From positions 1-10,267 of the forward strand of contig CAZYAW010000164.1 of NCBI GenBank assembly GCA_964646045.1: a stretch of 10,267 nt of DNA. Reading direction: 5' to 3'. A program made the position numbers and the translations under genes. The notes under the pieces were generated by a model that saw only the letters and a list, made by a program, of their open reading frames with translations, did not search any database and had not been told where the DNA came from. Shown piece after piece: positions 1 through 10,267 of this stretch (the stretch's first letter is position 1; each line of letters starts with the position of its first letter). The DNA is from an uncultured Victivallales bacterium. GTDB lineage: Bacteria; Verrucomicrobiota; Kiritimatiellia; UBA8416; SLMC01.

Positions 1-214
1 CCGAGGCCGCGTACTGCGGCAATATGGTCTTCAGCGCGCGGCGGCCGCCCAATGTCGTGTGCTCGGCCTCGTACACCTCGCCCATGCCGCCGCGGCCCAG
101 GGGGCGTATGATCTTGTACTGGCCCAGGGTTTGACCGGCAGACAGCGTGTAGCCGCCGGACTGGGCTGCGCCGGTTATAGTTCGGTCGGTGCCTATGGAG
201 TTTTCGGTTGTCAT
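1..214 (-). CDS. Ser/Thr protein kinase, N-terminal part (gene continues beyond the left window edge)
   Basis: The minus-strand translation from the ATG at 214..212 reads [71 protein letters not shown]. This contains a Hanks-kinase glycine loop ([10 protein letters not shown]) and the invariant subdomain-II lysine (ALK). There is an in-frame stop upstream at 250..248 and no stop before the window edge. It is not in the ORF table because it is open-ended. There is no clear SD. Confidence 0.7.
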
Positions 215-350
215 GGGTTTGGAAAGTATAGGGTTTTTGCGGGGTTGTCAGGTGAAAACTGAACAGTTGCGGATTTTGGCGCCGCCCGCCGGTCTGCTCC
301 GGCTGCGATCAGCGCCGGGACAGGCCGGGCGGGATCGCCGCCCTGTCCTG

Positions 351-1202: not shown

Positions 1203-1346
1203 GGCGAATTATCCTTTCCGGTGAAGAATTTCAATTGATTTTGCCGGCCTCGCGCCGGCTCTACGACATCCGGCCGATTCCGTTGTCTCGAACCATGTAT
1301 AAGCAAAAGCAAAAATAAGTAAACAGAAAAAAACAAAAAATAATTG

Positions 1347-1375
1347 TTGACACTTCTGATGGCCAGACGTAACTT
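1347..1375 (+). promoter_or_regulatory. Candidate sigma70-type promoter (-35 TTGACA, 17-nt spacer, -10 TAACTT) inside an AT-rich divergent intergenic island
   Basis: TTGACA at 1347-1352, then 17 nt, then TAACTT at 1370-1375. The surrounding 1203-1345 region is strikingly AT-rich for this DNA (aaaaataagtaaacagaaaaaaacaaaaaataatt). It lies between the divergently oriented genes starting at 1202 (minus) and 1443 (plus). Confidence 0.35.
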
Positions 1376-1442
1376 GCTGTTTCTTTGGCGGGAATACCGC
1401 CGCGCGGCGGATATCGGAGGCCGACAGGCCGGGAACCATGCT

Positions 1443-1787
1443 ATGAGCGCGAACAGCGACAAAAAGGAATTTCTTTCGGTGGACGAGGTCGCCAGGCTTC
1501 TCGGGGTGACGTATCATCTCATTTACCGCCTGGTGCGCGAGGGCGAGATACCGGCCTCGCGCATCGGCAAGGTGTACCGGGTGCGCCAGGCCGATCTCGA
1601 CGCGTATCTGGAGCGGTCCAAAACCGACGCGCCGCAGGGAACCGACTGCGCGGTGTGCGGCAAGACGTATGCCAGCCGGTTTTCGATCAAGGGCCAGTGC
1701 GAGGAATGCGAGGCTCCGATTTGCACGGACTGCTGGACGCGCAAGGGCGTACGGCGCTGTCCGGAACATGCGAAGCGGCAGGGATGA
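1443..1787 (+). CDS. Excisionase/MerR-type helix-turn-helix DNA-binding protein with a C-terminal Cys-rich (zinc-ribbon-like) domain; probable regulator, first gene of the cluster
   Basis: MSANSDKKEFLSVDEVARLLGVTYHLIYRLVREGEIPASRIGKVYRVRQADLDAYL matches the excisionase-family HTH pattern. It is followed by CAVCGK...CEECEAPICTDCW...RCPEH (Cys pairs). I prefer the ATG at 1443: the in-frame Met at 1344 falls inside the predicted promoter, so the listed ORF 1344..1787 is trimmed. The start is uncertain because GGAGG sits 22 nt upstream. Confidence 0.65.
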   Translation: MSANSDKKEFLSVDEVARLLGVTYHLIYRLVREGEIPASRIGKVYRVRQADLDAYLERSKTDAPQGTDCAVCGKTYASRFSIKGQCEECEAPICTDCWTRKGVRRCPEHAKRQG

Positions 1788-1807
1788 GGATGCGGGGACG
1801 ATAAACG

Positions 1808-1828
1808 TTGCCGGCGGGCTGCCGGCAA
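1808..1828. other. 8-bp perfect hairpin (ttgccggc / gggct / gccggcaa) in the 58-nt spacer between gene 1 and gene 2
   Basis: Inverted repeat read directly. No U-run follows it. It ends 5 nt before the GGAGG SD of the next gene. Confidence 0.25.
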
Positions 1829-1844
1829 GAGACGGAGGTGAGCG

Positions 1845-3509
1845 ATGGGAATTTTTTCCGACAAGTGTCAGGCCCTGATCGACGGGGAAAGCGGACGCGC
1901 GCTGACGGGGGAGGCTTTGGCCAAAGCCCGGCAGGAGCGCAAGTGGCCGCGCTGCGGAAACCGGGTGCCCAGGGCGGCGCGGTTCTGCAACGCCTGCGGA
2001 CAGGCGGCGCCGGGCGGCTGGTGGCAGTGTCCGGCCTGCGGCAAGTGGGTGGGCAACGATTCCCGGTTCTGCGCACACTGCGATACGCCGCTGCAGCCCG
2101 AGTCCCGGGTCGACATGGCGGGCGGGGTCTGGCGCAAGGGGCCGGAGACGCTGGCGCAGCGCTTCGAGGCGGGCGATGTGAAGCGGCTGCTGAAGAACGG
2201 GCTGCAGGTTCAGCCGGGCACGGTCGCGGTTTTGCTCGAGGCCGGCAAGGTCGGCGACACGCTGGGCCCGGGCCGTCACGAGCCCGACGGACTGGCGCGC
2301 AAGATCAACTGGTTCGGCAATCCGCCGCCGCGCTCGGTGGTGCTGGTGGAGGCCGGCGACATTGTGCTGCCGGTGCGCGTCGAGGAACTGCGTTCGGCCG
2401 AGCAGATTCCGCTGGAGTTCTACGGCGAGATCGTCCTGCGGTTCGAGCCCAGGCTGGCCGGGGATTTTCTGGAGAATCTGTTCAAGGGCGCCGAGGCGCT
2501 GTCCTACGCCGAACTCGGCGAACGGCTGGGCGGGGAGATCCGCCACGCCGTGGACGAGATGTGCGTGGCCTCGACGATCGACGACCTCGTGCGCGACCCC
2601 AAACGGAGACTGCGGCTCGAGGACGTGATCGAAGGCTCGCTCAAACCGGGGCTCGAACGCTGCGGTTTCAGCCTGGTTCGCGTTTCGCAGGCCGAGTTTC
2701 TGGGCGACGCCTACGACGCGCTGGCCGAAAAAAGCGGCGAGGTCGAGCAGGTCCGCCGCCGCATCGAACTCGATCAGCGGCTGGCCGAGATGCTCGACAA
2801 GGAGAAGATGGGCCGGTTCAAGAGCGAGGCCGAGATCGAGGAATACGCCGCCCAGCTCGCGCAGGAGCGCGGCGTGTCCGAACTGCACCGCGGACGCGAG
2901 ATCGAAATCCTGAAAACGGGCTGGCGGCGGCAGGACCAGCTCGACGAGGCGCGGCGCCTGATGACGCGGGAACGCGACGAGACCGGCCACAAGATCGGCA
3001 TCGCCTCCGAATGGGACGGCTACAACCGCGACAAGCTGGTCGCCGACGCCGACGCCAAGGCCCGGGCCCGCGACAAGGAATTCGAACAGGAGGCCCGCGA
3101 GACCGACAAGGCCCTGGAGTGGCGCAAGGAAAAGAACCGCATCCGTCAGCAGGATCTGGCCGCCACGGCCGACACTCTCAAGGGCCGCAGCCTGCAGGAC
3201 CTGATGGCTCTGATCGACGATCCCGACAAGCGCAGGGACCTGCTGGCGTTCCGGGAGCAGGAGATCAAGAGCGGCATGAGCGAGAGGCAGATACTGGCCA
3301 TGGCCGTCGAGAAGAGTCCGGCGGCCGCCGAGGCGCTGGCCCGCATGGCCGGCAGCGAGCAAGTCAATGCGGAGGCCCGTGTCGAGGAATCCCGCAAGCT
3401 GATGAAAGACATGCTCGACCGCGACGAACGCATCCTCAAGACGGCGCTGGAACCCGGCGTGGAGGCCGCCAGGAACAAAACCGGCAGCACCCACCAGATT
3501 ATCAAGTAG
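1845..3509 (+). CDS. Double zinc-ribbon + SPFH/Band-7 (Band_7_1-type) domain protein with a long C-terminal coiled-coil (flotillin-like)
   Basis: GGAGG sits 6 nt upstream of the ATG. The N-terminus has CPRCGN..FCNACG and CPACGK..FCAHCD zinc ribbons. The segment GDVKRLLKNGLQVQPGTVAVLLEAGKVGDTLGPGRHEPDGL...NWFGNPP...EFYGEIVLRF fits the SPFH Band_7_1 / COG4260 'virion-core-like' pattern. The C-terminal ~250 aa are E/R/K/A/D-rich heptad-like. The antisense 871-aa ORF is low-complexity. Confidence 0.8.
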   Translation: MGIFSDKCQALIDGESGRALTGEALAKARQERKWPRCGNRVPRAARFCNACGQAAPGGWWQCPACGKWVGNDSRFCAHCDTPLQPESRVDMAGGVWRKGPETLAQRFEAGDVKRLLKNGLQVQPGTVAVLLEAGKVGDTLGPGRHEPDGLARKINWFGNPPPRSVVLVEAGDIVLPVRVEELRSAEQIPLEFYGEIVLRFEPRLAGDFLENLFKGAEALSYAELGERLGGEIRHAVDEMCVASTIDDLVRDPKRRLRLEDVIEGSLKPGLERCGFSLVRVSQAEFLGDAYDALAEKSGEVEQVRRRIELDQRLAEMLDKEKMGRFKSEAEIEEYAAQLAQERGVSELHRGREIEILKTGWRRQDQLDEARRLMTRERDETGHKIGIASEWDGYNRDKLVADADAKARARDKEFEQEARETDKALEWRKEKNRIRQQDLAATADTLKGRSLQDLMALIDDPDKRRDLLAFREQEIKSGMSERQILAMAVEKSPAAAEALARMAGSEQVNAEARVEESRKLMKDMLDRDERILKTALEPGVEAARNKTGSTHQIIK

Positions 3510-3528
3510 AAGAGCGGAGACCGTTTCG

Positions 3529-5118
3529 ATGCCGGAAAAGACCAGATGTCCGAACTGCGACAGGCTGACGGAGCCGGGCCGCTTCTGCGCTCGGTGCGGC
3601 GGCGACCTGGGCGCCCCGGCCAGGACCGCGGCGCCGTCCGCCTTGCCGGTTGCGCCCCGCGACACGGTCCCGAAGCGCGAGATCGCGCCGGTCGAGTCCC
3701 CGGCCGATTCGCGGGACGCGAGCCGGCCGCGACCCTGGAGCCGCGCGACGGGCGGTTCCGACATTGCGCGTGCCGCCCAAGCCACGACGCCGGAAGCCCC
3801 GGCCGAACGGACGCGCCCCGCCACGGTAGTCTCCTACTGCAACGATCTCAAGATCGAATGCGATATGGCCCAGATTTTCGTGGCCGACATCAACATGCCG
3901 TTTTTTTTCAGGATCACGCCTCTGGCGGACGGCGTCGAGAAGCCGGTCGTCGAGGTGCGCTGCGACGCCGACAACTGGAGCCATCTCAAGGAGCTGACCA
4001 GAAAGCTGCGCAAGAACCGGTCCGTCGAGCACAGCGTCAACTACCGCCCGGGCCGCGAATCCGGGGGCGTCGTATCCTTCGACATCTACATCGCCTACCT
4101 CAAGGACGGCAAAAGACAGGCTTTCGAGGCCGACGTCCGGCACAAGGTCTATCCGAGCAACAGCAACGCGCGCCAGGTAGTCGACAACATCATTGTCAAC
4201 ATCAGCACCGAGATCAAGACCGGTCACGCCGCCGACATCAATCTGCGCAACGGGCTCGACGAACTCGCCTCCATTCGCGACCGGACCGGAGCCGACGACA
4301 CCCTGCAAAGCCTGATCGACCGCATTTCCTCGATGCCTCGGGCTCTGTCCATACTGCAAATGTATCCCTCCGACTGGCGTTCCGACGAACAACCCGGCGG
4401 GCATCGCGACGCCTGCACGCCCGAGGACGCCCGGCTCGACCGCCTCACGCTGCGGACCGGGGATACGCGGGTGCATCTCTACGCCGTCGAAAGTCTCGCC
4501 GCCGGCAAGCGCCGCGACAACGACCTGGTTACGCGCAACTTCAACCGGGCCGGCAGGGCGACAAGGGAAATCAACGACAAGATCAGCCGCTACCACGCCC
4601 GCTTCGAGCTGCACGACGACCGCTGTTTCGTCGAGGACGGCGGGTTCGACCCGGAGAAGGGAGCCCGCCGTGAATCGGCCAATGGCACCTGGCTTGGCGG
4701 GCGCCGTCTGCCGCCGCTGGGTTCGGCCGAGCTGCCGCCCGGAACCTCGACGCCGGTGTCGCTGGCCGGCGAGGACGTCGGCGCCTTCGCGGCCTTCGCC
4801 TTGAAAGCCACTCCCGCGCTCTGCGCCGCGCCGATCCCGCGCGCCTGCGGCATGTCCGACAACTGCCGACCCGGCACGCTGGCCGCCGTATTTCTGGAAA
4901 GACAGGGCGGCGACGCTCCCGAATCCTACGTCATGCTGGTGCGCTGCGCCGAGCTTGGCCGGCTCTCGCCGGATCTGGCGGGCCTGAAGGTCTGGCGACG
5001 CGGCGACGGAGTCAGGTTCTCGGCCGGAAACCGAAACGACTGGCTGATTCCGGGCGACAGCTTCGGGCTGAACGGCAAAACCGTGTTCGTGGAGCGATTC
5101 CGTCAGTGGGGACTGTAA
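3529..5118 (+). CDS. Zinc-ribbon + Pro-rich linker + domain of unknown function + FHA (forkhead-associated, phospho-Thr-binding) domain protein
   Basis: The N-terminus has CPNCDRLTEPGRFCARCG. The FHA signature is RNFNRAGRATREINDKISRYHARFEL...ESANGTWLGGRRL (G-R...S..H...NGT). The start is 20 nt after the previous stop and is preceded by AGCGGAGA. Residues ~100-330 have no family I recognise. Confidence 0.8.
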   Translation: MPEKTRCPNCDRLTEPGRFCARCGGDLGAPARTAAPSALPVAPRDTVPKREIAPVESPADSRDASRPRPWSRATGGSDIARAAQATTPEAPAERTRPATVVSYCNDLKIECDMAQIFVADINMPFFFRITPLADGVEKPVVEVRCDADNWSHLKELTRKLRKNRSVEHSVNYRPGRESGGVVSFDIYIAYLKDGKRQAFEADVRHKVYPSNSNARQVVDNIIVNISTEIKTGHAADINLRNGLDELASIRDRTGADDTLQSLIDRISSMPRALSILQMYPSDWRSDEQPGGHRDACTPEDARLDRLTLRTGDTRVHLYAVESLAAGKRRDNDLVTRNFNRAGRATREINDKISRYHARFELHDDRCFVEDGGFDPEKGARRESANGTWLGGRRLPPLGSAELPPGTSTPVSLAGEDVGAFAAFALKATPALCAAPIPRACGMSDNCRPGTLAAVFLERQGGDAPESYVMLVRCAELGRLSPDLAGLKVWRRGDGVRFSAGNRNDWLIPGDSFGLNGKTVFVERFRQWGL

Positions 5119-5169
5119 ACGAAAGCGCAAGATCTGGGAAAACAGGGCATACGGAAAGGGGAACCCGAC

Positions 5170-5946
5170 ATGAGAACGAAGAAACAGGGACAATGGCTGT
5201 GGGCGCGGGCGGGCATGGTGGCGGCGGCGATGCTGACGCAGGGCTGCGGGACCGCGGCGGTGATGCGACCGGCCGACCGGACCGCCGATTCCGAGTCCGT
5301 CGCCGCGACAACGGCCGAGGAGCACGCCAGGCTGCTGAACCTGCGCATCGACGCCCGGGGTTCGGGCGCGCACGACAAGACCGTGGCCGGGCTCGTCGGG
5401 CGAAGCGTCTCCGGCAGTCTCCTGCGGCAGGGCTACCGCATGGAGGACGGAACCGCCGACGTGCTGGTCAGCCTGACGGCCGAGGCCAAGGTCTTCGACA
5501 AGAGCGGCAACTACTACCGGCACGACGGCACGCTCGACGCCGAAGTCAGCCTGCCGCCGGCCCGGCGCAAGATCGGCCGACAGAGCTTCACCGCCCGCGG
5601 CGACCGCAAGCTGGGCGAAACCGAAAGCCTTCGGGACCTCGCCGCCAGGCTTGCCGAACCCGCCGAAGAATGGGTTCGGACCCTGGCCGGGCCGCTGGGC
5701 TCCGAACTGGCCGTCAACGATGTCGTCGTCCGGCGCTCCAGGCTGAACGCCGTGAAAACCCCGGATTCCCGCTATGCCGAGCGTTTCGTCAAGCGCGTAT
5801 CCGAACTCGACGGCGTTATCTCCTGCGAACTGGTCGGCCAGGACCGCGTCGCCCATGGCATGACTTTCAGAATCGTTTACTACAGGCAGAAGTTCCCCGC
5901 CGGCATGCTCAACCGGCTGGCCAACATGAGCGGGCTCGAGCTGTAG
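5170..5946 (+). CDS. Putative lipoprotein of unknown function
   Basis: The signal peptide MRTKKQGQWLWARAGMVAAAMLTQGC ends in a lipobox-like LTQGC. The SD AAAGGGGA sits ~8 nt upstream of the start. Confidence 0.6.
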   Translation: MRTKKQGQWLWARAGMVAAAMLTQGCGTAAVMRPADRTADSESVAATTAEEHARLLNLRIDARGSGAHDKTVAGLVGRSVSGSLLRQGYRMEDGTADVLVSLTAEAKVFDKSGNYYRHDGTLDAEVSLPPARRKIGRQSFTARGDRKLGETESLRDLAARLAEPAEEWVRTLAGPLGSELAVNDVVVRRSRLNAVKTPDSRYAERFVKRVSELDGVISCELVGQDRVAHGMTFRIVYYRQKFPAGMLNRLANMSGLEL

Positions 5947-6028
5947 CCGCGGAGAAGGGGCGCGAAGGGCGGGACAAGGGAGACGCGATACGCAACCGGG
6001 AAAATATCAACACGGAAGGAAAACTACC

Positions 6029-7117
6029 ATGAAAAGACGGGAAACGATCAATATCGGGTGGATGGCGGCCGCGGCGGCTCTGGTTTTCATGCAGCCCGCG
6101 CGGGGATCGGCCGACGAACTGCGCCAGGCCGTCCGCATGGCGGTCGAGGACGCGCGCGACAGCCTCGCCAAAAGCGGACTGCCGCGCGACCGGGGCCTGG
6201 CCGTTCTGCCTTTGACCGGCGACCGGGACCGCTATGTCGAGGGCCTGCTCAAAACCGCGGTCACCGACGCCGGGCTCAAGCATGTCGAGGGCGGCCGCTC
6301 GCCGTTCTGGGACGAAATACTCCGTGAAGTCGAGTGGGCCGAGCGCAAGGAGGACATGCTGGCCCCCGAGACCGCCGCAAAGTTCGGCAAACTGGAAGGC
6401 GTGCGCATGCTGCTCTACGGCACGCTGCGTTCCGCGCGCCGCGAGACCCACCGGGTCTTCGTCGAGATCGAGCTGCACGTCAGCGACATCGAGACCGGCC
6501 GCCACCTCTGGGGAACCGCGGTCAGCCGCCGGTTCTACCTGCCCGGCGCCGTGCAGGGCATTGTCGATCTCGACACCGACGCCCGCAACGCCATCGACCG
6601 CACCATCGAGAAGGGGCTGGAGTCCCTGAAGGGCAGCGACAAGCTCGGCGAAATTCGGACTGTGGCGATGGTTCCGCTGGCCGGCGACATCGACAGCTAC
6701 GTCGGCGGGCGCGTGCAGGACATGGTCTCGCGGACTCGGCTGAACCCCAAGAACCTCGACCTGCCGACTCTCGGCGAGGCCCGTCAGCTCATGCGCGACC
6801 GGCCCGAACAGGCCGACGCCGTGCTCTACGGCGCATTGCGCGACCTCTCGCGCCGTCTGGTGCGCGAGGAAACCATGCGTACCACGCACGAGGTCTCGGC
6901 GGAAATCCAGCTTGTCATCCAGTCCGCCTCTACAGGGGAAGTGCTCTGGAGCGACACGCTGCGTCATGTCGAGGAGGTCACGCCCGCGAAACCCGGCGAG
7001 GAGGCCGTGGTCGAGCTGACCCGCAGGTATCCGCGTCTCTGGCTGTATCTCGGCGGCGGCCTCCTGGGGCTGATCGTTCTGAGCATAATCGTCAAGAAGG
7101 CTACGCGGGTAAGGTAG
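6029..7117 (+). CDS. Secreted protein with two tandem CsgG/LpoB/TolB-N-like domains and a C-terminal TM anchor
   Basis: It has a signal peptide (MKRRETINIGWMAAAAALVFMQPARGSA). There is an internal duplication: LAVLPLTGDRDRYVEGLL...LLYGTL...VFVEIELHVSDIETGRHLWG versus VAMVPLAGDIDSYVGGRV...VLYGAL...VSAEIQLVIQSASTGEVLWS. The C-terminus is hydrophobic (LWLYLGGGLLGLIVLSIIV KKATRVR). The SD GGAAGGAAAA is present. Confidence 0.7.
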   Translation: MKRRETINIGWMAAAAALVFMQPARGSADELRQAVRMAVEDARDSLAKSGLPRDRGLAVLPLTGDRDRYVEGLLKTAVTDAGLKHVEGGRSPFWDEILREVEWAERKEDMLAPETAAKFGKLEGVRMLLYGTLRSARRETHRVFVEIELHVSDIETGRHLWGTAVSRRFYLPGAVQGIVDLDTDARNAIDRTIEKGLESLKGSDKLGEIRTVAMVPLAGDIDSYVGGRVQDMVSRTRLNPKNLDLPTLGEARQLMRDRPEQADAVLYGALRDLSRRLVREETMRTTHEVSAEIQLVIQSASTGEVLWSDTLRHVEEVTPAKPGEEAVVELTRRYPRLWLYLGGGLLGLIVLSIIVKKATRVR

Positions 7118-7337
7118 GCGGGGGGCCGCTTGCCGATCTTGTTTCGGCGGATGCCGGCGTCGCGGAGCGCCCCGTCCGGGACGTTCGCCGCGATTTTGCG
7201 CGACTACCGGCCCCGGCGGGGCTCCGCGTCTTTGCCCCGCCCGACAATGCGGACGGGGACGGGACAACCGGGCTGGGCTTGCGTGTTCCGCTCCGCCGAC
7301 AGCCCCATGCCGCCGACGCTCCGGGAATCCGCTTCTC

Positions 7338-7351
7338 AGCGCGCAAGCGCT
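7338..7351. other. Small GC hairpin with a GCAA (GNRA) loop abutting the distal end of the TR
   Basis: agcgc-gcaa-gcgct read directly. It lies immediately beyond the last TR/VR-homologous base on the TR-sense strand. Confidence 0.25.
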
Positions 7352-7495
7352 CAGCGAGACAACACCAAACGAAACCCGTTGTTGTTGTTACGATTCGACG
7401 GATTGTTGTCGTTGCGGTTCGAACAACGCAGGTTGTCCTGATTGTTGTTGTTCCAGGACGCGCCGCGCCACGCGCCGAACGACCCGCCGAACGTT
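7350..7495 (-). repeat. DGR template repeat (TR), non-coding, 146 bp
   Basis: It is collinear with 9007-9152 at an offset of +1657. The sense (minus) strand reads ...TCC TGG AAC AAC AAC AAT CAG GAC AAC CTG CGT TGT TCG AAC CGC AAC GAC AAC AAT CCG TCG AAT CGT AAC AAC AAC AAC GGG TTT.... All 25 mismatches to the VR lie at TR adenines. It is not within any plausible ORF. It begins 8 nt after the RT stop codon. Confidence 0.85.
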
Positions 7496-7502
7496 CGCCC
7501 GG

Positions 7503-8555
7503 TCATCCAAAACCATGTGCTCTATACTGCCGATAAAGCCCTTTTGTGTTACCGTAGTCCGCAAACGCCTTCCAGCCCTCCGCCGACTTGATGACATCAG
7601 GCATTTCCGTTCTGCCGTCACGCACATCGGCCATGCGGCGACGCATGCGCCGCTCGAACCGGCGTTTGCACTCGCCGATAAGTCGCGGGGAACGGGCGGG
7701 GAAAAAGCGAAATCCGAGAAACGGAACACCGGTTCGCGTTGGAATGATTCGTGTCTTGACCGGATGCAGCGACAGCCTGTCCTCGACCAGCAGTTGCGCA
7801 ATAGCATCCCGGCATGTCCGCAGTGTCGACTTGTCGTCCGCCCACAGAATGAAATCGTCCGTATAGCGCACATAGCCCGGCACGCGCAGTTCTTCCCGGA
7901 TGAAGTGGTCCATGCGATCGAGATACAGGTTCGCCCACAACTGGCTGGTCAGGTTGCCGATCGGCAATCCGCGCTTACGACCTGTCGGCGCAAGCGGATC
8001 GTCCCCGGGGAACCATGCGGGAGCCGTTTCCCCGGATATGCTGGAGCCTATGATGCGGCGGCAAAGCTCAAGGGTGGCACGACAACGTATTGCCCGCGAC
8101 ACCTTGTCGAACAGAATCTCGTGATCGACAGAATCGAAGTATTTGGAGATGTCGCACTTCAGCGCGTAACGGTAACGGTTGGTGAACATCCGGCAACGCT
8201 CGCGGCCCGCCAGCGTTCCCTTGCCCTTGCGACAGGAGTACGAGTCGTGCACGAAACGGCGCTCGATCAATGGCCCGATCACGTTGCACAGCGCATGATG
8301 CACGATCCTGTCGCGGTACGGAGCGGCGCTGATCGTGCGGGTTTTAGGATCGTGTATCCGGAACTTTCGGTAGGCAGAAGGCGTCCAGCGTTCCGCCGTA
8401 AGTTCCTCGTGAATCTGCCGCACAAAACGTTCCCGGTGCAGTTCGAAACGCTCGACATCCTCCTTGCGCGTCTTGCGTTTGCGGGCCTTGGCAGCAGCCG
8501 CGTAAAGATTCTCAAGCGCGCAAATCCCGGCATACAGATTGCCCCGGCTTTTCAC
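7503..8555 (-). CDS. DGR reverse transcriptase
   Basis: RT motifs are present: PKTRTISAAPYRDRIVHHAL; DISKYFDSVDHEIL; GLPIGNLTSQLWANLYL (the DGR-specific IGxxxSQ); YVRYTDDFILW (YxDD); LSLHPVKTRI; FLGFRF. The start is proposed at the GTG at 8555..8553, which overlaps the TGA of the upstream Avd-like gene as GTGA, with AGGGAAAG 8 nt upstream. The open frame itself extends to 8681. Confidence 0.85.
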   Translation of the reverse strand: MKSRGNLYAGICALENLYAAAAKARKRKTRKEDVERFELHRERFVRQIHEELTAERWTPSAYRKFRIHDPKTRTISAAPYRDRIVHHALCNVIGPLIERRFVHDSYSCRKGKGTLAGRERCRMFTNRYRYALKCDISKYFDSVDHEILFDKVSRAIRCRATLELCRRIIGSSISGETAPAWFPGDDPLAPTGRKRGLPIGNLTSQLWANLYLDRMDHFIREELRVPGYVRYTDDFILWADDKSTLRTCRDAIAQLLVEDRLSLHPVKTRIIPTRTGVPFLGFRFFPARSPRLIGECKRRFERRMRRRMADVRDGRTEMPDVIKSAEGWKAFADYGNTKGLYRQYRAHGFG

Positions 8556-8911
8556 GGCGATGCTTTCCCTGACTGCTGCTTGAGCCAGCCGCCGACCATG
8601 CGGCCCGCCTCGTCCAGCTTGCCGTGCACAAAGTCCAGTTGCCTCAAGTTGATCCAACTGCGCTTCTGCACCAGCCGCCACAGAACGCGCAGTTCTTCCA
8701 GCTTCAGATTGATCTCGTCCAGCATCGCGGTCTTTTCCCGCGTGTGGATCGCGCGAACGACAAGCTGAAGCACATCCAGCGTCATCGCGTCAATCCGCTG
8801 CCCGAACGTGAAGCGTTGCGACTTCGGGATGGCCGCCGTGCGGTCGAAAGTCCAGCCGCAGACCTCCTCCCATACGGTGTAAATCGGCGGGCGTTTCGTA
8901 TCCGGTTTCAT
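8552..8911 (-). CDS. avd: Avd-like accessory variability determinant (four-helix-bundle family)
   Basis: 119 aa, positioned between the VR-bearing target and the RT as in characterised DGRs. Its sequence (IYTVWEEV...FPK-like ...RIDAMTLDVLQLVVRAIHT...LEELRVLWRLV...LDEAGRMVGGWLKQ) fits the Avd / 23S-IVS four-helix-bundle pattern as I remember it. The SD is weak. Confidence 0.6.
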   Translation of the reverse strand: MKPDTKRPPIYTVWEEVCGWTFDRTAAIPKSQRFTFGQRIDAMTLDVLQLVVRAIHTREKTAMLDEINLKLEELRVLWRLVQKRSWINLRQLDFVHGKLDEAGRMVGGWLKQQSGKASP

Positions 8912-8936
8912 ATGGAAAATTCAAATTTCAAACTCG

Positions 8937-8973
8937 ACCCGCTCCGCGGGTACGGAAGGCGCCATTCGGCGCC
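8937..8973. other. Two adjacent GC hairpins in the 96-bp gap between the VR stop and avd
   Basis: Both were read directly: acccgc-tcc-gcgggt at 8937-8951 and ggcgcc-attc-ggcgcc at 8958-8973. They sit 35-70 nt downstream of the VR on the sense strand, where DGRs carry a homing-associated stem-loop. Neither is followed by a U-run. Confidence 0.3.
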
Positions 8974-9006
8974 AAAGAAACAAAGGTCAAAGGGTAAATT
9001 TAAGCC

Positions 9007-9152
9007 CTCAGCGAGACAACACCAAACGAAACCCGCGGCGGTCGACACGAAACGACGGAACGTAGGCGCCGCGGTACGAACAACGCAGGTAGCCCTGAGT
9101 GCGGTAGGACCAGGACGCGCCGCGCCACGCGCCGAACGACCCGCCGAACGCT
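9007..9152 (-). repeat. DGR variable repeat (VR) covering the last ~49 codons plus stop of the kinase-FGE target gene
   Basis: It is the counterpart of the TR. It encodes ...GQAFGGSFGAWRGASWSYRTQGYLRCSYRGAYVPSFRVDRRGFRLVLSR*. The TR would instead encode ...GRTFGGSFGAWRGASWNNNNQDNLRCSNRNDNNPSNRNNNNGFRLVLSR*. The 3'-terminal 29 nt on the sense strand are identical to the TR (IMH-like invariant end). Confidence 0.85.
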
Positions 9153-10267
9153 TGTCCTGTGCTGTCTCTGGCGCAGGCCTCCCATACGTTGCCGCCAACG
9201 CCATGAAGACCCCAAGGATTGGCCCAGAGCTTGTCGACGGGCGCCGTTACGGGAAACCCGTCATTGTAGCCGGATATCTTGTCCCATGTTCCAGCACCTT
9301 CCTGTCCGTGATAATTCCCGGCCCGCCCGCTCGGCGGCGGCCAATTGTTGCCCCACGGATATTCCCTACCATCTCCGCACTGCGCGTATGTCATCCATTC
9401 GTCCTCGCTGGGCAGCCGATACCTTGCTCCGCCCAGCGCCGCCTTCTCGCGCTCGGTCAGCCACGCGGCATACGCCTTGGCATCATCAAAATTCACATAC
9501 ACCACCGGCTGGCTGTCACGGTTGAGACTGTGATTCTTATAGCTCTTCGAGTCATGACGCGGTTCCTTTTTCCGGTACTCCCCGTTCGTCACTTCGAATT
9601 TACCCACCCACATCTTCAATGCGTCAATCCACACGAATTTCATACCGGTCGCGGGAGATGTCCAGTTCTGGCCGGCTACCGGCGCACCACGTTGCGACGC
9701 CGCCGCATCCCTCCGAGGCGCAACAGCAGCCGGGGTACTGGCAGGGGGAGGCGTTGGACGGGAACTGACGGCCGGGGCCGAAGGTCTTGCAGCAACACCT
9801 TGGGTCTGCTTCGGCTTGCTGTCACGGCTTATCAAGACCCCGAAGCCGATGACCGCCGCGATAACAACCAGCAGCGCAAAACCGCGTCCGCCCCGCCGTT
9901 TCTTTGCTTTCGGTACGGCAGGCGGCTCTGCGGGCTGACTTCGCGCGGCAAGCTCCTCTCGCCGCCTGGTTTCCTGTGAGCGTTGCTCAGCCTCAGCCTG
10001 CCGCCGGGCGGCCTCCGCCTTTTGCCGCTGCTCGGCGGCCTTTGCACGGCGTTCCTGCTCCAGACGCGCCCGCTCGACTTCCGCCCGCCGCGCCTCTTCC
10101 TCACGCAACCTTTTCGACTCCTTGGCAGCGGCCCCAATCTCACCCCCGTACAGTCCACCCAACGACGCGGCCACTGCCGCCATGTCCGCAGGCCGATCTG
10201 CAGGGTCTTCTTCAAGACAGGAGTCAATCAGGTCGTCCCATGCATCATCAAGCCCAGCAACCAGCTT
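9008..10267 (-). CDS. Ser/Thr protein kinase (C-lobe end; 5' part outside window) - charged coiled-coil linker - single TM helix - extracytoplasmic FGE-sulfatase / C-type-lectin-fold domain; DGR target (variable) protein
   Basis: The frame is open to the window edge. The translation upstream of the first Met reads KLVAGLDDAWDDLIDSCLEEDPADRPADMAAV, a kinase subdomain-XI-like motif. The TM helix is GFALLVVIAAVIGFGVLI. FGE-domain motifs include FEVTNGEY, YRLPSEDEW, YPWGNNW, GNVWEA, GGSFGAWRGASW and RRGFRLV. Confidence 0.85.
   Translation of the reverse strand, partial: KLVAGLDDAWDDLIDSCLEEDPADRPADMAAVAASLGGLYGGEIGAAAKESKRLREEEARRAEVERARLEQERRAKAAEQRQKAEAARRQAEAEQRSQETRRREELAARSQPAEPPAVPKAKKRRGGRGFALLVVIAAVIGFGVLISRDSKPKQTQGVAARPSAPAVSSRPTPPPASTPAAVAPRRDAAASQRGAPVAGQNWTSPATGMKFVWIDALKMWVGKFEVTNGEYRKKEPRHDSKSYKNHSLNRDSQPVVYVNFDDAKAYAAWLTEREKAALGGARYRLPSEDEWMTYAQCGDGREYPWGNNWPPPSGRAGNYHGQEGAGTWDKISGYNDGFPVTAPVDKLWANPWGLHGVGGNVWEACARDSTGQAFGGSFGAWRGASWSYRTQGYLRCSYRGAYVPSFRVDRRGFRLVLSR

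Follow-up and report, generated by a model that had tools for sequence, protein, structure and literature searches.

A diversity-generating retroelement and its template-linked structured RNA in an uncultured Victivallales bacterium

The minus strand of the window (the whole stretch of DNA analysed, 10,267 nucleotides from an uncultured Victivallales bacterium) very probably carries a complete diversity-generating retroelement (DGR) that is recently or currently active. On this strand, the cassette reads target gene with its variable repeat (VR), avd, reverse transcriptase (RT), template repeat (TR) and structured RNA. An earlier note, made from the sequence alone, had interpreted the locus as a DGR, and this interpretation is borne out by mismatches restricted to adenines, by the adjoining RT and Avd genes and by population data. 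As a DGR, the system is ordinary, a textbook member of a described class. Some 31,000 DGRs have been catalogued, FGE/CLec domains are the commonest class of target, and kinase-CLec targets have already been described.

The repeat pair and the genes of the cassette

The repeats, the protein-coding genes and the inverted repeats near the VR are located as follows, with the basis for each in brackets where one applies.

9008..10267, minus strand: DGR target gene, 3′ part (420 codons and stop), cut by the right end of the window (Pfam, homologue on contig L002)
9007..9152, minus strand: VR, the last 47 codons and stop codon of the target, core 9036-9109 (TR alignment, alleles)
8974-9001, minus strand: CCTTT-type pyrimidine repeats ahead of the VR-proximal hairpin
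8958..8973, minus strand: GC-rich inverted repeat GGCGCC-GAAT-GGCGCC, 34 nt 3′ of the VR (hairpin scan, folding)
8937-8951, minus strand: second hairpin, ACCCGC-GGA-GCGGGT
8552..8911, minus strand: avd, accessory variability determinant, 119 aa (Pfam bAvd 3.3e-16; NCBIfam)
7503..8555, minus strand: DGR reverse transcriptase, 350 aa, its GTG start overlapping the avd stop (GTGA) (Pfam RVT_1 7.6e-22)
7350..7495, minus strand: TR, mutagenic core 7379-7452, source of the A positions at which the VR varies

The two repeats align without gaps at an offset of +1657, with 25 mismatches. The earlier claim that these are adenine-only is upheld by pairwise alignment and tabulation: 25/25 fall at TR adenines of the minus (sense) strand, which are T on the plus strand of the first copy, and opposite these the plus strand of the VR has C at 10, A at 9 and G at 6. 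There are 34 A in the 146-nt TR core, and the hypergeometric probability that all 25 mismatches would fall on them is 5.6e-21. The mismatches occupy codon positions 1 (14) and 2 (11) and no others. The diversified core holds 31 A's in 17 codons, comprising 14 AAY, two GAC and one CAG. The seven A's said to be unchanged inside the variable zone were confirmed for the window allele, and the peptide strings NNNNQDN/NRNDNN/NRNNNN of the TR and SYRTQGY/YRGAYV/FRVDRR of the VR were reproduced.

Weaker TR/VR homology reaches 7503/9160 on one side, with three non-A mismatches (7501, 7498 and 7496), and 7345/9002 on the other, with one C/G mismatch (7349/9006) just beyond the repeat. Apart from this pair (family D1, 159 nt, 82%), the window contains no long repeat, and no further copy of the pair occurs there. 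No IMH/IMH* asymmetry is seen at the 3′ end of the TR/VR pair, where the last 29 nt of both repeats are identical; because this asymmetry is not universal among DGRs, its lack does not exclude membership.

The A-rich copy had been taken for the donor, and rightly so: it begins 7 nt past the stop codon of a DGR-type RT gene, with avd nearby. Its description as non-coding holds for its function, although the TR keeps an open frame of 51 codons (7351-7506, overlapping the RT stop as ATGA) that gene callers report on contigs L001-L010 and L094 and that is annotated as an FGE fragment. Similarly, the VR does form the C-terminus of an FGE-domain ORF, but "intact" does not fit that ORF, which measures 391 aa from an internal ATG and runs off the end of the window.

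The target ORF has no in-frame stop upstream as far as the window end. Its FGE-sulfatase match in Pfam has an E of 2.4e-26, and its upstream residues resemble the end of a kinase domain. The kinase part itself falls beyond the window and was read from a full-length homologue on contig L002, which shares ~99% DNA identity and matches both Pkinase (1.7e-37) and FGE (4.1e-27). The full-length product of 700 aa consists of a Ser/Thr kinase (aa 33-310), a charged coiled region, a hydrophobic helix, a Pro/Ala-rich linker and an FGE-sulfatase/C-type-lectin-like domain (aa 501-697; window 9020-9610), for which the sequence predicts a C-type-lectin/FGE fold. The hydrophobic helix is one 19-mer (aa 410-428; window 9827-9883), and the Kyte-Doolittle maximum of the target, 2.67, is found at GFALLVVIAAVIGFGVLIS, with KKRRGGR on its N-side. 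The target is likely a Hanks-type kinase joined by one predicted transmembrane helix to the variable domain, and the hydropathy peak with its flanking positive charges would place the FGE domain outside the cytoplasm. Such a protein would likely be a receptor kinase, in which a ligand-binding pocket outside the cytoplasm is diversified and a putative signalling module in the cytoplasm is kept constant.

The Avd protein scores 85.9 bits against the NCBIfam DivGenRetAVD equivalog, passing the cut-off of 80, and an identical protein occurs on 19 metagenome contigs; a sequence search of the PDB with Avd gave no match. For the RT, gene callers predict the same 350-aa product. Among solved structures, the RT is closest to the 328-aa bRT of the 8ub7 series (E 1.2e-41), ahead of group II intron RTs (5.6e-19); NCBIfam has no curated DGR-RT model, and its group II model scores the protein below its cut-off. 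In 21 relatives, the motifs IGNLTSQ and YTDD never vary, nor do the conserved equivalents of bRT K29, F66, R74, I76, I181, G182, Q187, D138 and D215/216, and the enzyme keeps the residues that in bRT contact template and dNTP. The 4-nt overlaps between avd and RT and between RT and the TR ORF fit a single operon.

The GC-rich inverted repeat near the VR recalls a published hairpin/cruciform with a GC stem of 7–10 bp and a GRNA loop, 4–34 bp from the VR (Guo et al. 2011). The stem in the window is 6 bp long, and its GAAT loop fits GRNA except in the final position. Relatives have a GC-rich hairpin at an equal relative position with a GAA, GGA or GAAT loop, such as TCCGCC-GAAT-GGCGGA on contig L014. 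The GGCGCC hairpin is a candidate DNA hairpin/cruciform for target-site recognition; it could also, or instead, be a transcription terminator of the target gene.

The template-linked RNA and the limit of transfer

Directly 3′ of the TR, covariation and a covariance model delimit a structured RNA whose sequence blocks are conserved in relatives. Its parts, and the strand 5′ of the TR with which it pairs, are given below.

7497..7508, minus strand: 5′ strand of the putative stop duplex, GGAUGACCGGGC, spanning the RT stop codon and abutting the TR on its 5′ side (pairing, permutation test)
7164..7349, minus strand: TR-linked structured RNA, ~185 nt (covariation, covariance model)
7338-7351, minus strand: small hairpin at the TR end
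7294-7326, minus strand: P1 stem-loop
7262-7273, minus strand: 3′ strand of the putative stop duplex, GCCCGGUUGUCC, within the structured RNA
7235-7258, minus strand: P2 hairpin
7229-7234, minus strand: invariant CAAAGA, after P2
7210-7224 (5′ strand) and 7165-7182 (3′ strand), minus strand: P3 long stem, enclosing CCGGUAG, P4 and CGAACGU
7188-7203, minus strand: P4 hairpin

RNAalifold found compensatory changes in 22/25 pairs of the RNA. In P1, 10 of the 11 bp show such changes, as do eight of the 9 bp of P3, the stem that encloses P4. The proposed pairs are paired in 91.9% of cases, compared with 71% when shuffled (the observed value was reached in 0/500 shuffles) and 32–46% when slid, and 24/30 pairs have changed on both sides, though these covariation statistics, drawn from 29–61 PVC-clade sequences, are inflated to some degree by kinship. 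The corresponding A5 statistics, which were fitted to the model, are 93.9% and 70.7%. The covariance model R1 has one match in the window, at 7164-7330(-) with 94.5 bits and E 3e-22, and 61 matches in 58 of the 75 sources searched. The match starts 0–35 nt past the TR in 32/34 loci, and this position is fixed whether the TR comes before or after the RT gene. The A's of CAAAGA, unpaired adenosines directly after P2, are invariant in 29 sequences, and the RNA also holds invariant G-U pairs. No family in Rfam matches it.

The strand that spans the RT stop codon forms 12 bp of a 12–13-bp long-range duplex with 7262-7273. This pairing averages 11.4/13 within a locus and 7.8 across loci, and the within-locus value was reached in 0/10,000 permutations. 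In the window, TR/VR identity starts 2 nt 3′ of the duplex, and in 15/15 informative loci it starts 2–10 nt 3′ of it. The comparison of sequences thereby points to a duplex that would mark the 5′ limit of TR-to-VR transfer, much like the "cPRT Stop" of BPP-1.

A terminator, a leader or some other regulatory RNA could conceivably sit beside the cassette by mere co-occurrence, outside the reverse-transcription machinery. In many relatives, an intrinsic-terminator-like run of T follows the last stem, P3, and the RNA is mapped onto the elements of BPP-1 by order and shape rather than by sequence homology or an Rfam family. A candidate primer strand also pairs with the TR 3′ end no better within a locus than across loci (6.7 versus 6.9), a comparison without power because both strands are conserved. 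A gene terminator or leader would nevertheless not be expected to keep its place just past the TR on either side of the RT gene. Nor would it account for a locus-specific duplex with sequence 5′ of the TR that coincides with the transfer limit in every informative locus, and a fold of several helices over 160 nt, with unpaired A's and G-U pairs that never vary, exceeds by far what a terminator needs. Such co-occurrence is therefore improbable, and a role for the RNA in reverse transcription is preferred.

Population variation and activity

Variation was followed in the window and nine related metagenome contigs (10 sequences), with an eleventh contig, L094, added for one allele. The TR is 100% identical on all 11 contigs. 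Among the 10 sequences, the VR occurs in six clean alleles and in one more with indels (contig L010), and L094 supplies a seventh clean allele. The variable sites of the VR among the 10 sequences cover 31/34 TR-adenine positions, including all 31 core adenines, and 0/112 G/C/T positions. Opposite the A at TR 7494, all VR alleles seen have G, which makes this a fixed difference and not a variable site. None of the alleles contains a stop codon, and the remaining ~2,950 nt of cassette sequence, made up of target, avd, RT and TR, have no variable site among the 10 sequences; the structured RNA is likewise invariant in the population. The contig comparison thus agrees with the earlier proposal that the TR stays invariant while polymorphism of the VR is confined to A-corresponding positions. 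L094 has a single non-A change near the VR 3′ end. The L010 allele has +2 and +3 nt indels that shift the frame, which could come from mixed alleles being mis-assembled or could mark a dead allele. Because the same alleles turn up again in different samples, they are real lineages and not assembly noise.

These consensus contigs of different metagenomes argue strongly for a DGR that is active now or was so recently. The cassette might instead be a relic, inactive today, with VR alleles that are old polymorphisms kept in diverged strains. The recurrence of identical alleles across samples does indicate that an allele can stay stable for some time, and signs of decay might be seen in the frameshifted VR of L010 and in the kinase part of the target on contig L008, which is split into two ORFs. 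If strains were old enough to have fixed seven or eight VR alleles with differences at as many as 31 sites, differences elsewhere would be expected too, yet the flanking ~2,950 nt do not vary. Moreover, every gene is intact, catalytic residues are conserved, and the TR and the 185-nt RNA are unchanged while every core adenine varies, all of which makes a relic very unlikely. Exchange between paralogous kinase-FGE genes, by recombination or gene conversion, can be dismissed almost entirely as a source of the VR variation, and so can chimeric assembly. A second kinase gene begins at the left end of the window, and over its first 192 nt it matches the N-terminus of the L010 target at 98% identity, which shows that paralogue exchange or chimeric assembly does occur at this locus; the L010 VR also carries indels. 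Yet neither gene conversion nor assembly chimeras would confine differences to the 34 TR-A positions and spare 112 others, the window has no other copy of the repeat, and RT, Avd and template adjoin the VR.

Recent or current retrohoming is thus the preferred source of the alleles. Seven clean VR alleles on otherwise identical DNA, from several metagenomes, provide a clean natural example of activity and make this locus well suited to following the turnover rate of a cellular DGR in reads or time series.

Proposed mechanism and comparison with known systems

The biochemical steps, including the synthesis of adenine-mutagenised cDNA, are proposed by analogy with BPP-1. The operon would be transcribed, and RNA carrying the TR and its 3′ structured extension would bind the RT-Avd complex. 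The RT would copy the TR to cDNA, inserting random nucleotides opposite template adenines, and synthesis would halt a few nt before the 12–13-bp duplex. At the 3′ end of the target gene, the homologous VR would then be exchanged for the cDNA, probably with help from the GC-rich hairpin. Since the template A's lie at positions 1 and 2 of AAY, GAC and CAG codons, 17 residues of the FGE domain could be randomised without creating stops, which by arithmetic (15^14 x 4^3) gives ~10^18 potential protein variants.

Much of this is shared with the prototype BPP-1 (mtd-avd-TR-brt): adenine-specific transfer from a TR to a VR that encodes the C-terminus of a C-type-lectin-fold protein, an AAY-rich template, an Avd, an RT homologous to bRT (E 1e-41) and a GC-rich hairpin 3′ of the VR, the last with its own loop, stem length and distance in the window. 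BPP-1 is phage-borne and diversifies a tail-fibre protein, whereas the element of the window is cellular and its target is a kinase-TM-FGE protein. BPP-1 has IMH/IMH* mismatches, and none are visible here. The order is avd-TR-brt in BPP-1 and avd-RT-TR in the window, so that here it is the end of the RT gene, rather than avd, that supplies the 5′ strand of the stop duplex. In sequence, the RNA shows no detectable likeness to the Sp of BPP-1, but the order of elements is repeated, namely a stem-loop, a single-stranded segment, a strand pairing with sequence 5′ of the TR, a small hairpin with adenosines and a long interrupted stem. By position and shape, P1 and P3 would correspond to the Avd-binding stem-loop and the RT-binding stem, respectively.

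Sp-like RNAs of Avd-containing DGRs have been predicted by single-sequence folding with MxFold2 in Pseudomonadota, Bacillota, Cyanobacteriota, Nanoarchaeota and CPR (Handa et al., bioRxiv 10.1101/2023.10.23.563531). The RNA of the window has all three features of those predicted elements. Beyond that work, it is accompanied by covariation over PVC-clade sequences, and its duplex falls at the TR/VR boundary.

Two things may be new here, and their combination is put forward tentatively, at a little under even chances: that the TR RNA represents an uncatalogued family of Verrucomicrobiota, Lentisphaerota and their neighbours with a transfer-limiting duplex, and that the target is a transmembrane receptor kinase whose hypervariable sensor lies outside the cell and which is wired to the adjacent FHA-domain protein. 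If so, this would be the first comparative evidence, from covariation and the TR boundary, for the cPRT-Stop architecture across a large clade of cellular DGRs, an architecture that cryo-EM has shown in one phage. Whatever precedes the TR, here the RT stop codon, would be recruited as the 5′ strand of the duplex, and the target would in effect be a somatically diversified antigen-receptor kinase outside cyanobacteria. Comparing the stop duplex with the TR/VR boundary offers a test that needs sequence only, and its outcome supports the reverse-transcription model of BPP-1 in a distant clade. The covariance model that the relatives yielded for the TR-linked RNA could also help to annotate DGRs better, by locating TRs and placing their ends precisely, and to design better DGR-based mutagenesis tools.

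Cellular "clade 5" DGRs have CLec domains fused to NACHT/STAND, kinase, caspase or TIR, and both Pkinase-CLec targets and TM-anchored periplasmic CLec domains have been described among them (Dore et al. 2024, PMC10907252). The targets of the window RT's relatives are alike: all have FGE, fused to signalling or conflict domains (NACHT in 12/37, Pkinase in 6, caspase in 6, and also SIR2, HD and trypsin), a likeness that concerns the targets. The text of that paper makes no mention of PVC bacteria, to which the present hosts belong (Victivallales/Lentisphaerae, Verrucomicrobiota and Opitutales). The window has no MoxR/VMAP ternary-system genes; the neighbouring genes encode an FHA-domain protein and lipoproteins.

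Cyanobacterial DGRs also target Ser/Thr-kinase-CLec proteins (Vallota-Eastman et al. 2020, PMC7517822). As in those systems, an N-terminal Hanks-type kinase is combined with a C-terminal diversified CLec domain, and a paralogous kinase gene is nearby, this being the second Ser/Thr-kinase gene, which begins at the left end of the window. Here, by contrast, the host belongs to the PVC bacteria, and a transmembrane helix is predicted between kinase and CLec. A predicted membrane-spanning Ser/Thr kinase as target, beside an FHA-domain gene in a PVC bacterium, extends the theme of diversified sensors and signalling beyond cyanobacteria and multicellular proteobacteria.

The repeat pair and the genes of the retroelement

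The best-supported reading of this locus is a working diversity-generating retroelement (DGR) that randomises 17 codons in the C-type-lectin-like (CLec) domain of a predicted membrane-spanning Ser/Thr kinase. FGE/CLec targets are common among DGRs, and targets linked to kinases have already been published. Three things lift this one above a routine DGR: population evidence of activity that is unusually clean, a kinase-TM-CLec architecture (the TM segment being predicted) in a PVC bacterium, and a covariation-supported model of an RNA linked to the template repeat (TR), with a stop duplex marking the TR boundary. All functional genes of the element lie on the minus strand.

Features of the retroelement in the window
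9008 to beyond the right end, minus: 3' part of the target gene, FGE-sulfatase domain (Pfam E 2.4e-26)
9007-9152, minus: variable repeat (VR), 3' end of the target gene
8974-9001, minus: CCTTT-type pyrimidine repeats between the VR end and a GC-rich hairpin
8958-8973, minus: the hairpin, GGCGCC-GAAT-GGCGCC, 34 nt from the VR end, with a second small hairpin next to it
8552-8911, minus: avd, 119 aa (Pfam bAvd 3.3e-16; NCBIfam DivGenRetAVD 85.9 bits)
7503-8555, minus: reverse transcriptase (RT), 350 aa, GTG start overlapping the avd stop (GTGA)
7351-7506, minus: TR ORF, 51 codons in an open frame, ATG overlapping the RT stop (ATGA)
7350-7495, minus: TR

The two 146-nt copies, the sole long repeat within the window, align without gaps at an offset of +1657 and differ at 25 positions. 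Every mismatch is a T on the plus strand of the first copy, and thus an A on the sense strand, facing C (10), A (9) or G (6) on the plus strand of the second. Since the TR holds 34 A's among its 146 sense-strand bases, the probability that 25 of 25 mismatches would fall on A by chance is 5.6e-21. In the VR frame, the mismatches occupy codon positions 1 (14) and 2 (11) and none elsewhere. The earlier note had read this pair as the signature of a DGR, and rightly so; its count of 25 adenine-only mismatches, the AAC/AAT-rich codons of the first copy and the peptide strings that it quoted were all reproduced. Weaker homology reaches 7503/9160 on one side, with three non-adenine mismatches (7501, 7498 and 7496), and 7345/9002 on the other, with a single C/G mismatch at 7349. 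TR and VR do not differ in their final 29 nt, so that no IMH/IMH* asymmetry can be seen between them.

The TR begins 7 nt past the RT stop codon. On every related contig, automated gene callers have called the TR ORF as a 51-aa "FGE-sulfatase (weak)", and we see no reason to think that it is translated. The annotation is a pitfall, and could also be used for finding TRs.

The Avd protein scored above the curated cut-off of 80 for DivGenRetAVD. A sequence search of Avd against the PDB gave no match. The closest solved relative of the RT was a 328-aa RT (entries 8ub7-8ube; E 1.2e-41), and the best group II intron RT gave E 5.6e-19. The numbering of I181, G182 and Q187 in the 8ub7-8ube chain agrees with residues of bRT, the RT of the Bordetella phage prototype DGR BPP-1, that are named in the BPP-1 cryo-EM paper. 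Equivalents of bRT K29, F66, R74, I76, I181, G182, Q187, D138 and D215/216 are all present in the window RT and, with the IGxxxSQ and YxDD motifs among them, are invariant in 21 relatives. NCBIfam holds no DGR-RT model, and the top RT match there was a group II RT model, below its cut-off. ORFs on the strand opposite to genes (7515-8768+, 8624-9979+, 5909-7267-, 3502-5856- and 1209-3824-) had zero Pfam matches and were treated as shadow ORFs of this 65% GC sequence.

In BPP-1, a hairpin/cruciform 3' of the VR is required, and phage DGR hairpins have a GC-rich stem of 7–10 bp and a GRNA loop at 4–34 bp from the VR (Guo et al. 2011). The window hairpin matches this pattern in location and base make-up, whereas its stem length and loop match only in part; it could act as a terminator as well. 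Relatives share the layout, with GC-rich stems, GAA, GGA or GAAT loops and often a GCGAAGC motif. Pyrimidine repeats of the CCTTT/CTTTG type, in 3–6 copies, also lie 3' of the VR in related loci L014–L068, a position conserved across many PVC-clade DGRs. To our knowledge, no function has been described for them.

Population variation at the variable repeat

An exact protein look-up matched Avd on 19 metagenome contigs; 10 of these (L001–L010) were taken into the comparison, and an eleventh, L094, was added through a look-up of the TR ORF. The source metagenomes are JGI samples 3300001335, 3300001336 and 3300001533 and those of the 3300077xxx and 3300078755 series. The TR was 100% identical on all 11. 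In the window and the nine contigs whose VR aligned without gaps, six VR alleles were found, with 31 of 146 columns variable and all 31 facing a TR adenine. Among the remaining adenines, that at 7494 is G in every VR allele, and two others were never altered. By comparison, the 112 G, C and T positions matched the TR in every one of the six alleles (112/112). Over the six alleles, the base tally at the TR-A sites was A 65, G 63, T 52 and C 24, and no allele contained a stop codon. Outside the VR, the 3,140-nt cassette had only 11 variable columns, all of them at 7130-7175, where they adjoin an indel that lies past the element; across the other ~2,950 nt, made up of target, avd, RT and TR, no column varied. 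The population check proposed in the earlier note thus came out as predicted, and such A-restricted VR variation alongside an invariant TR shows, at the level of sequence, recent or ongoing mutagenic homing.

Four alleles were each found twice among these consensus sequences, on different contigs or in different samples (window and L008, L001 and L005, L003 and L007, L004 and L009), which argues against assembly noise. The VR of L094 brings the clean alleles to seven and has a single non-A change close to its 3' end. In L010, the VR (L010:2700-2920) carries insertions of 2 and 3 nt relative to the TR that shift the frame, and the target reads on into avd in another frame (a 721-aa call); this may be due to different alleles mis-assembled together or to an indel that arose in homing.

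An indel/replacement haplotype lies at window 7125-7175, immediately 3' of the RNA element. Five contigs (L001, L003, L004, L005 and L008) carry ~192 extra nt there, including a strong hairpin (GGTGGAGGTGG...CCGACCTCCACC) and flanked by a 37-nt imperfect direct repeat, together with 11 linked SNPs; the insertion is absent from the window, L002, L006, L007 and L009. The same VR allele occurs with both haplotypes in three pairs: window and L008, L003 and L007, L004 and L009.

The target kinase and its neighbourhood

The target had been described as an intact FGE ORF, a claim that has to be given up because the frame stays open upstream to the window end, and because homologues of 700 aa carry a kinase domain. 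What the window holds is a receptor-like Ser/Thr kinase truncated by the window edge, of which the C-terminal 60% is present, and the first residues inside the window look like the last part of a kinase domain. The related contigs carry this gene at ~99% DNA identity, and there it encodes Pkinase at aa 33-310 and FGE at aa 501-697. Between the two lie a charged region, one strongly hydrophobic 19-mer (aa 410-428; Kyte-Doolittle 2.67) with KKRRGGR ahead of it, and a linker rich in Pro and Ala.

The randomised codons comprise 14 AAY, two GAC and one CAG, which by arithmetic allows about 15^14 x 4^3, or ~2e18, protein variants. Since positive charges flank the predicted helix on the kinase side, the variable domain would face outward as a diversifiable sensor, and the constant kinase, coupled to it, would be cytoplasmic. 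By analogy with known systems, we infer the topology, the part played in signalling and each of the biochemical steps. On contig L008/L091 (MLSed_10028884), which has the VR allele of the window, the target was called as two ORFs, a 256-aa kinase and a 460-aa FGE protein. This implies a frameshift in the kinase-linker region, beyond the coverage of the window, which is either an assembly error or a sign of a pseudogenised copy.

Convergent with the DGR is a plus-strand gene cluster (1344-7117), and a second kinase gene runs off the left end.

Neighbouring genes in the window
1-263, minus: start of a second Ser/Thr-kinase gene (gene start about 218), running off the left end
1344-1787, plus: excisionase-family HTH protein (TIGR01764 1.4e-16)
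1808-3568, plus: 586-aa protein, repeated CxxC-like DNA motifs, no family match
3529-5118, plus: zinc-ribbon and FHA-domain protein
5170-5946, plus: 258-aa protein, putative lipoprotein (lipoprotein-like N-terminus)
6029-7117, plus: LpoB-like protein, putative lipoprotein

FHA domains bind phosphothreonine, and the proximity of the FHA protein to two Ser/Thr kinases suggests a phospho-signalling module. The first 192 nt of the second kinase gene (49 nt of 5' UTR included) are 98% identical to the N-terminal part of the L010 DGR target (721 aa), but not to that of the target on the other contigs; the 72 aa inside the window had no Pfam match. The identity could reflect recombination between paralogues, a second DGR target or a chimeric assembly.

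The TR-linked RNA and its occurrence in relatives

The ~200 nt that follow the TR on its 3' side do not code for protein but are conserved in relatives down to ~45% RT identity, and an Rfam scan of the whole window (E<=1) gave no match. RNAalifold on 29 sequences returned two helices with compensatory changes in 22 of 25 pairs. A hand-drawn structure of 30 pairs (P1, the base of P2, P3 and P4) was then tested: 91.9% of cells paired, against 71.0% in shuffled alignments and 32–46% with slid partners, 24 of the 30 pairs had changed on both sides, and none of 500 shuffles reached any of the observed measures. A covariance model built from that alignment found 61 matches in 58 of 75 sources, and exactly one in the window (7164-7330, minus; 94.5 bits, E 3e-22). 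In the resulting 61-sequence alignment, which is fitted to the model and hence leans towards the structure, 93.9% of cells pair against 70.7% when shuffled. The RNA starts 0–35 nt past the TR (median 14.5) in 32 of 34 loci with a scanner-found TR, and this holds with the TR on either side of the RT gene. Within the population the RNA is invariant, the two haplotypes parting just beyond its last helix.

In the cryo-EM structure of the BPP-1 RNP, the RNA elements 3' of the TR are, in order, an Avd-binding stem-loop, a primer strand base-paired to the 3' end of the TR, a strand whose pairing partner lies 5' of the TR (the "cPRT Stop" duplex), a small stem-loop with adenosines after it in A-minor contacts, a single-stranded "thumb ring" and a long, interrupted RT-binding stem (bioRxiv 10.1101/2023.10.23.563531). 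The window RNA has the same order of elements.

Elements of the window RNA
7294-7326, minus: P1, followed by a single-stranded segment
7262-7273, minus: GCCCGGUUGUCC
7235-7258, minus: P2
7229-7234, minus: invariant CAAAGA, followed by a short single-stranded stretch
7165-7224, minus: P3/P4

For the stop duplex, folding with shuffles gave z of about 0, the signal being drowned by large loops and high GC; gapless scoring of the linker against 107 upstream columns, with cross-locus controls, was therefore adopted. In 24 of 29 loci, the top duplex used the same linker columns and lay at a fixed distance upstream of the TGGAAC motif of the TR. In this fixed register, own-locus pairing was 11.4 of 13 against 7.8 +/- 2.3 across loci, a value reached in 0 of 10,000 permutations, and the duplex sequences are wholly different among loci (e.g., GUGGAUGUGCAG/CUGCAUGUCCAC versus GGAUGACCGGGC/GCCCGGUUGUCC). 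The 5' limit of TR/VR identity, taken as the 3'-most non-adenine mismatch, falls 2–10 nt 3' of the upstream duplex strand in all 15 informative loci; in the window, that strand is 7497-7508 and identity runs from 7495. In BPP-1, cDNA synthesis stops a few nucleotides before the corresponding duplex (bioRxiv 10.1101/2023.10.23.563531). Compensatory mutation in that phage failed to restore activity. For the primer:template duplex, in which the TR 3' end would pair with the stretch 5' of the stop strand, own-locus pairing equalled cross-locus pairing, both strands being conserved, and candidates were found by eye only: GGGUGGU/GCCACCU in Verrucomicrobia-type loci and GUGUU/AACAC in the window. 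An initially suspected CCUAACC:GGNUU pairing overlaps the stop-duplex strand and was dropped. As the published survey of such RNA elements used single-sequence fold prediction in other phyla (bioRxiv 10.1101/2023.10.23.563531), the covariation evidence is additional and the concept itself is not new.

A G-U wobble in P1 is invariant in the 29-sequence alignment (columns 20/33; 29/29) and present in 57/60 of the larger one, and a second, in P3 (columns 129/173), is nearly so. The unpaired blocks AAAGA, CCGGUA(A/G) and CGAA(A/C)GU are also conserved; together with the two G-U pairs, they are likely protein-contact sites. A T-run like that of an intrinsic terminator often follows the last helix, P3 (L023, L024, L026, L034, L035, L045 and L052), even with the RT gene downstream; the window copy is without it.

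The nearest genomic RTs come from PVC-superphylum MAGs (Victivallales 79%, Verrucomicrobiota 73%, Opitutales 62% and Lentisphaerae 61%), followed by many Verrucomicrobia at 45–50%. With a simple TR/VR scanner, pairs of repeats with an adenine bias came up in ~40 relative loci, arranged VR-avd-RT-TR, as in the window (L014, L016, L023, L025, L030 and L049), or VR-TR-RT (L019, L022, L026, L027 and others). All 37 VR-bearing ORFs of relatives contain an FGE domain, fused to NACHT (12), Pkinase (6, that of the window included), caspase (6) and also PEGA, SIR2, HD-CE, trypsin or STAND. Fusions of this class have been described for cellular "clade 5" DGRs (PMC10907252); Ser/Thr-kinase-CLec targets have been described in cyanobacteria (PMC7517822), and a 2018 survey lists one kinase class (PMC5758913). 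Several relatives have two VR-bearing targets. In three loci, the RT gene has a copy of the TR-linked RNA on either side (L017, 3007-3169 and 4802-4961; L036, 5363-5525 and 7194-7313; L045, 5339-5494 and 7185-7338), which suggests DGRs with two TRs.
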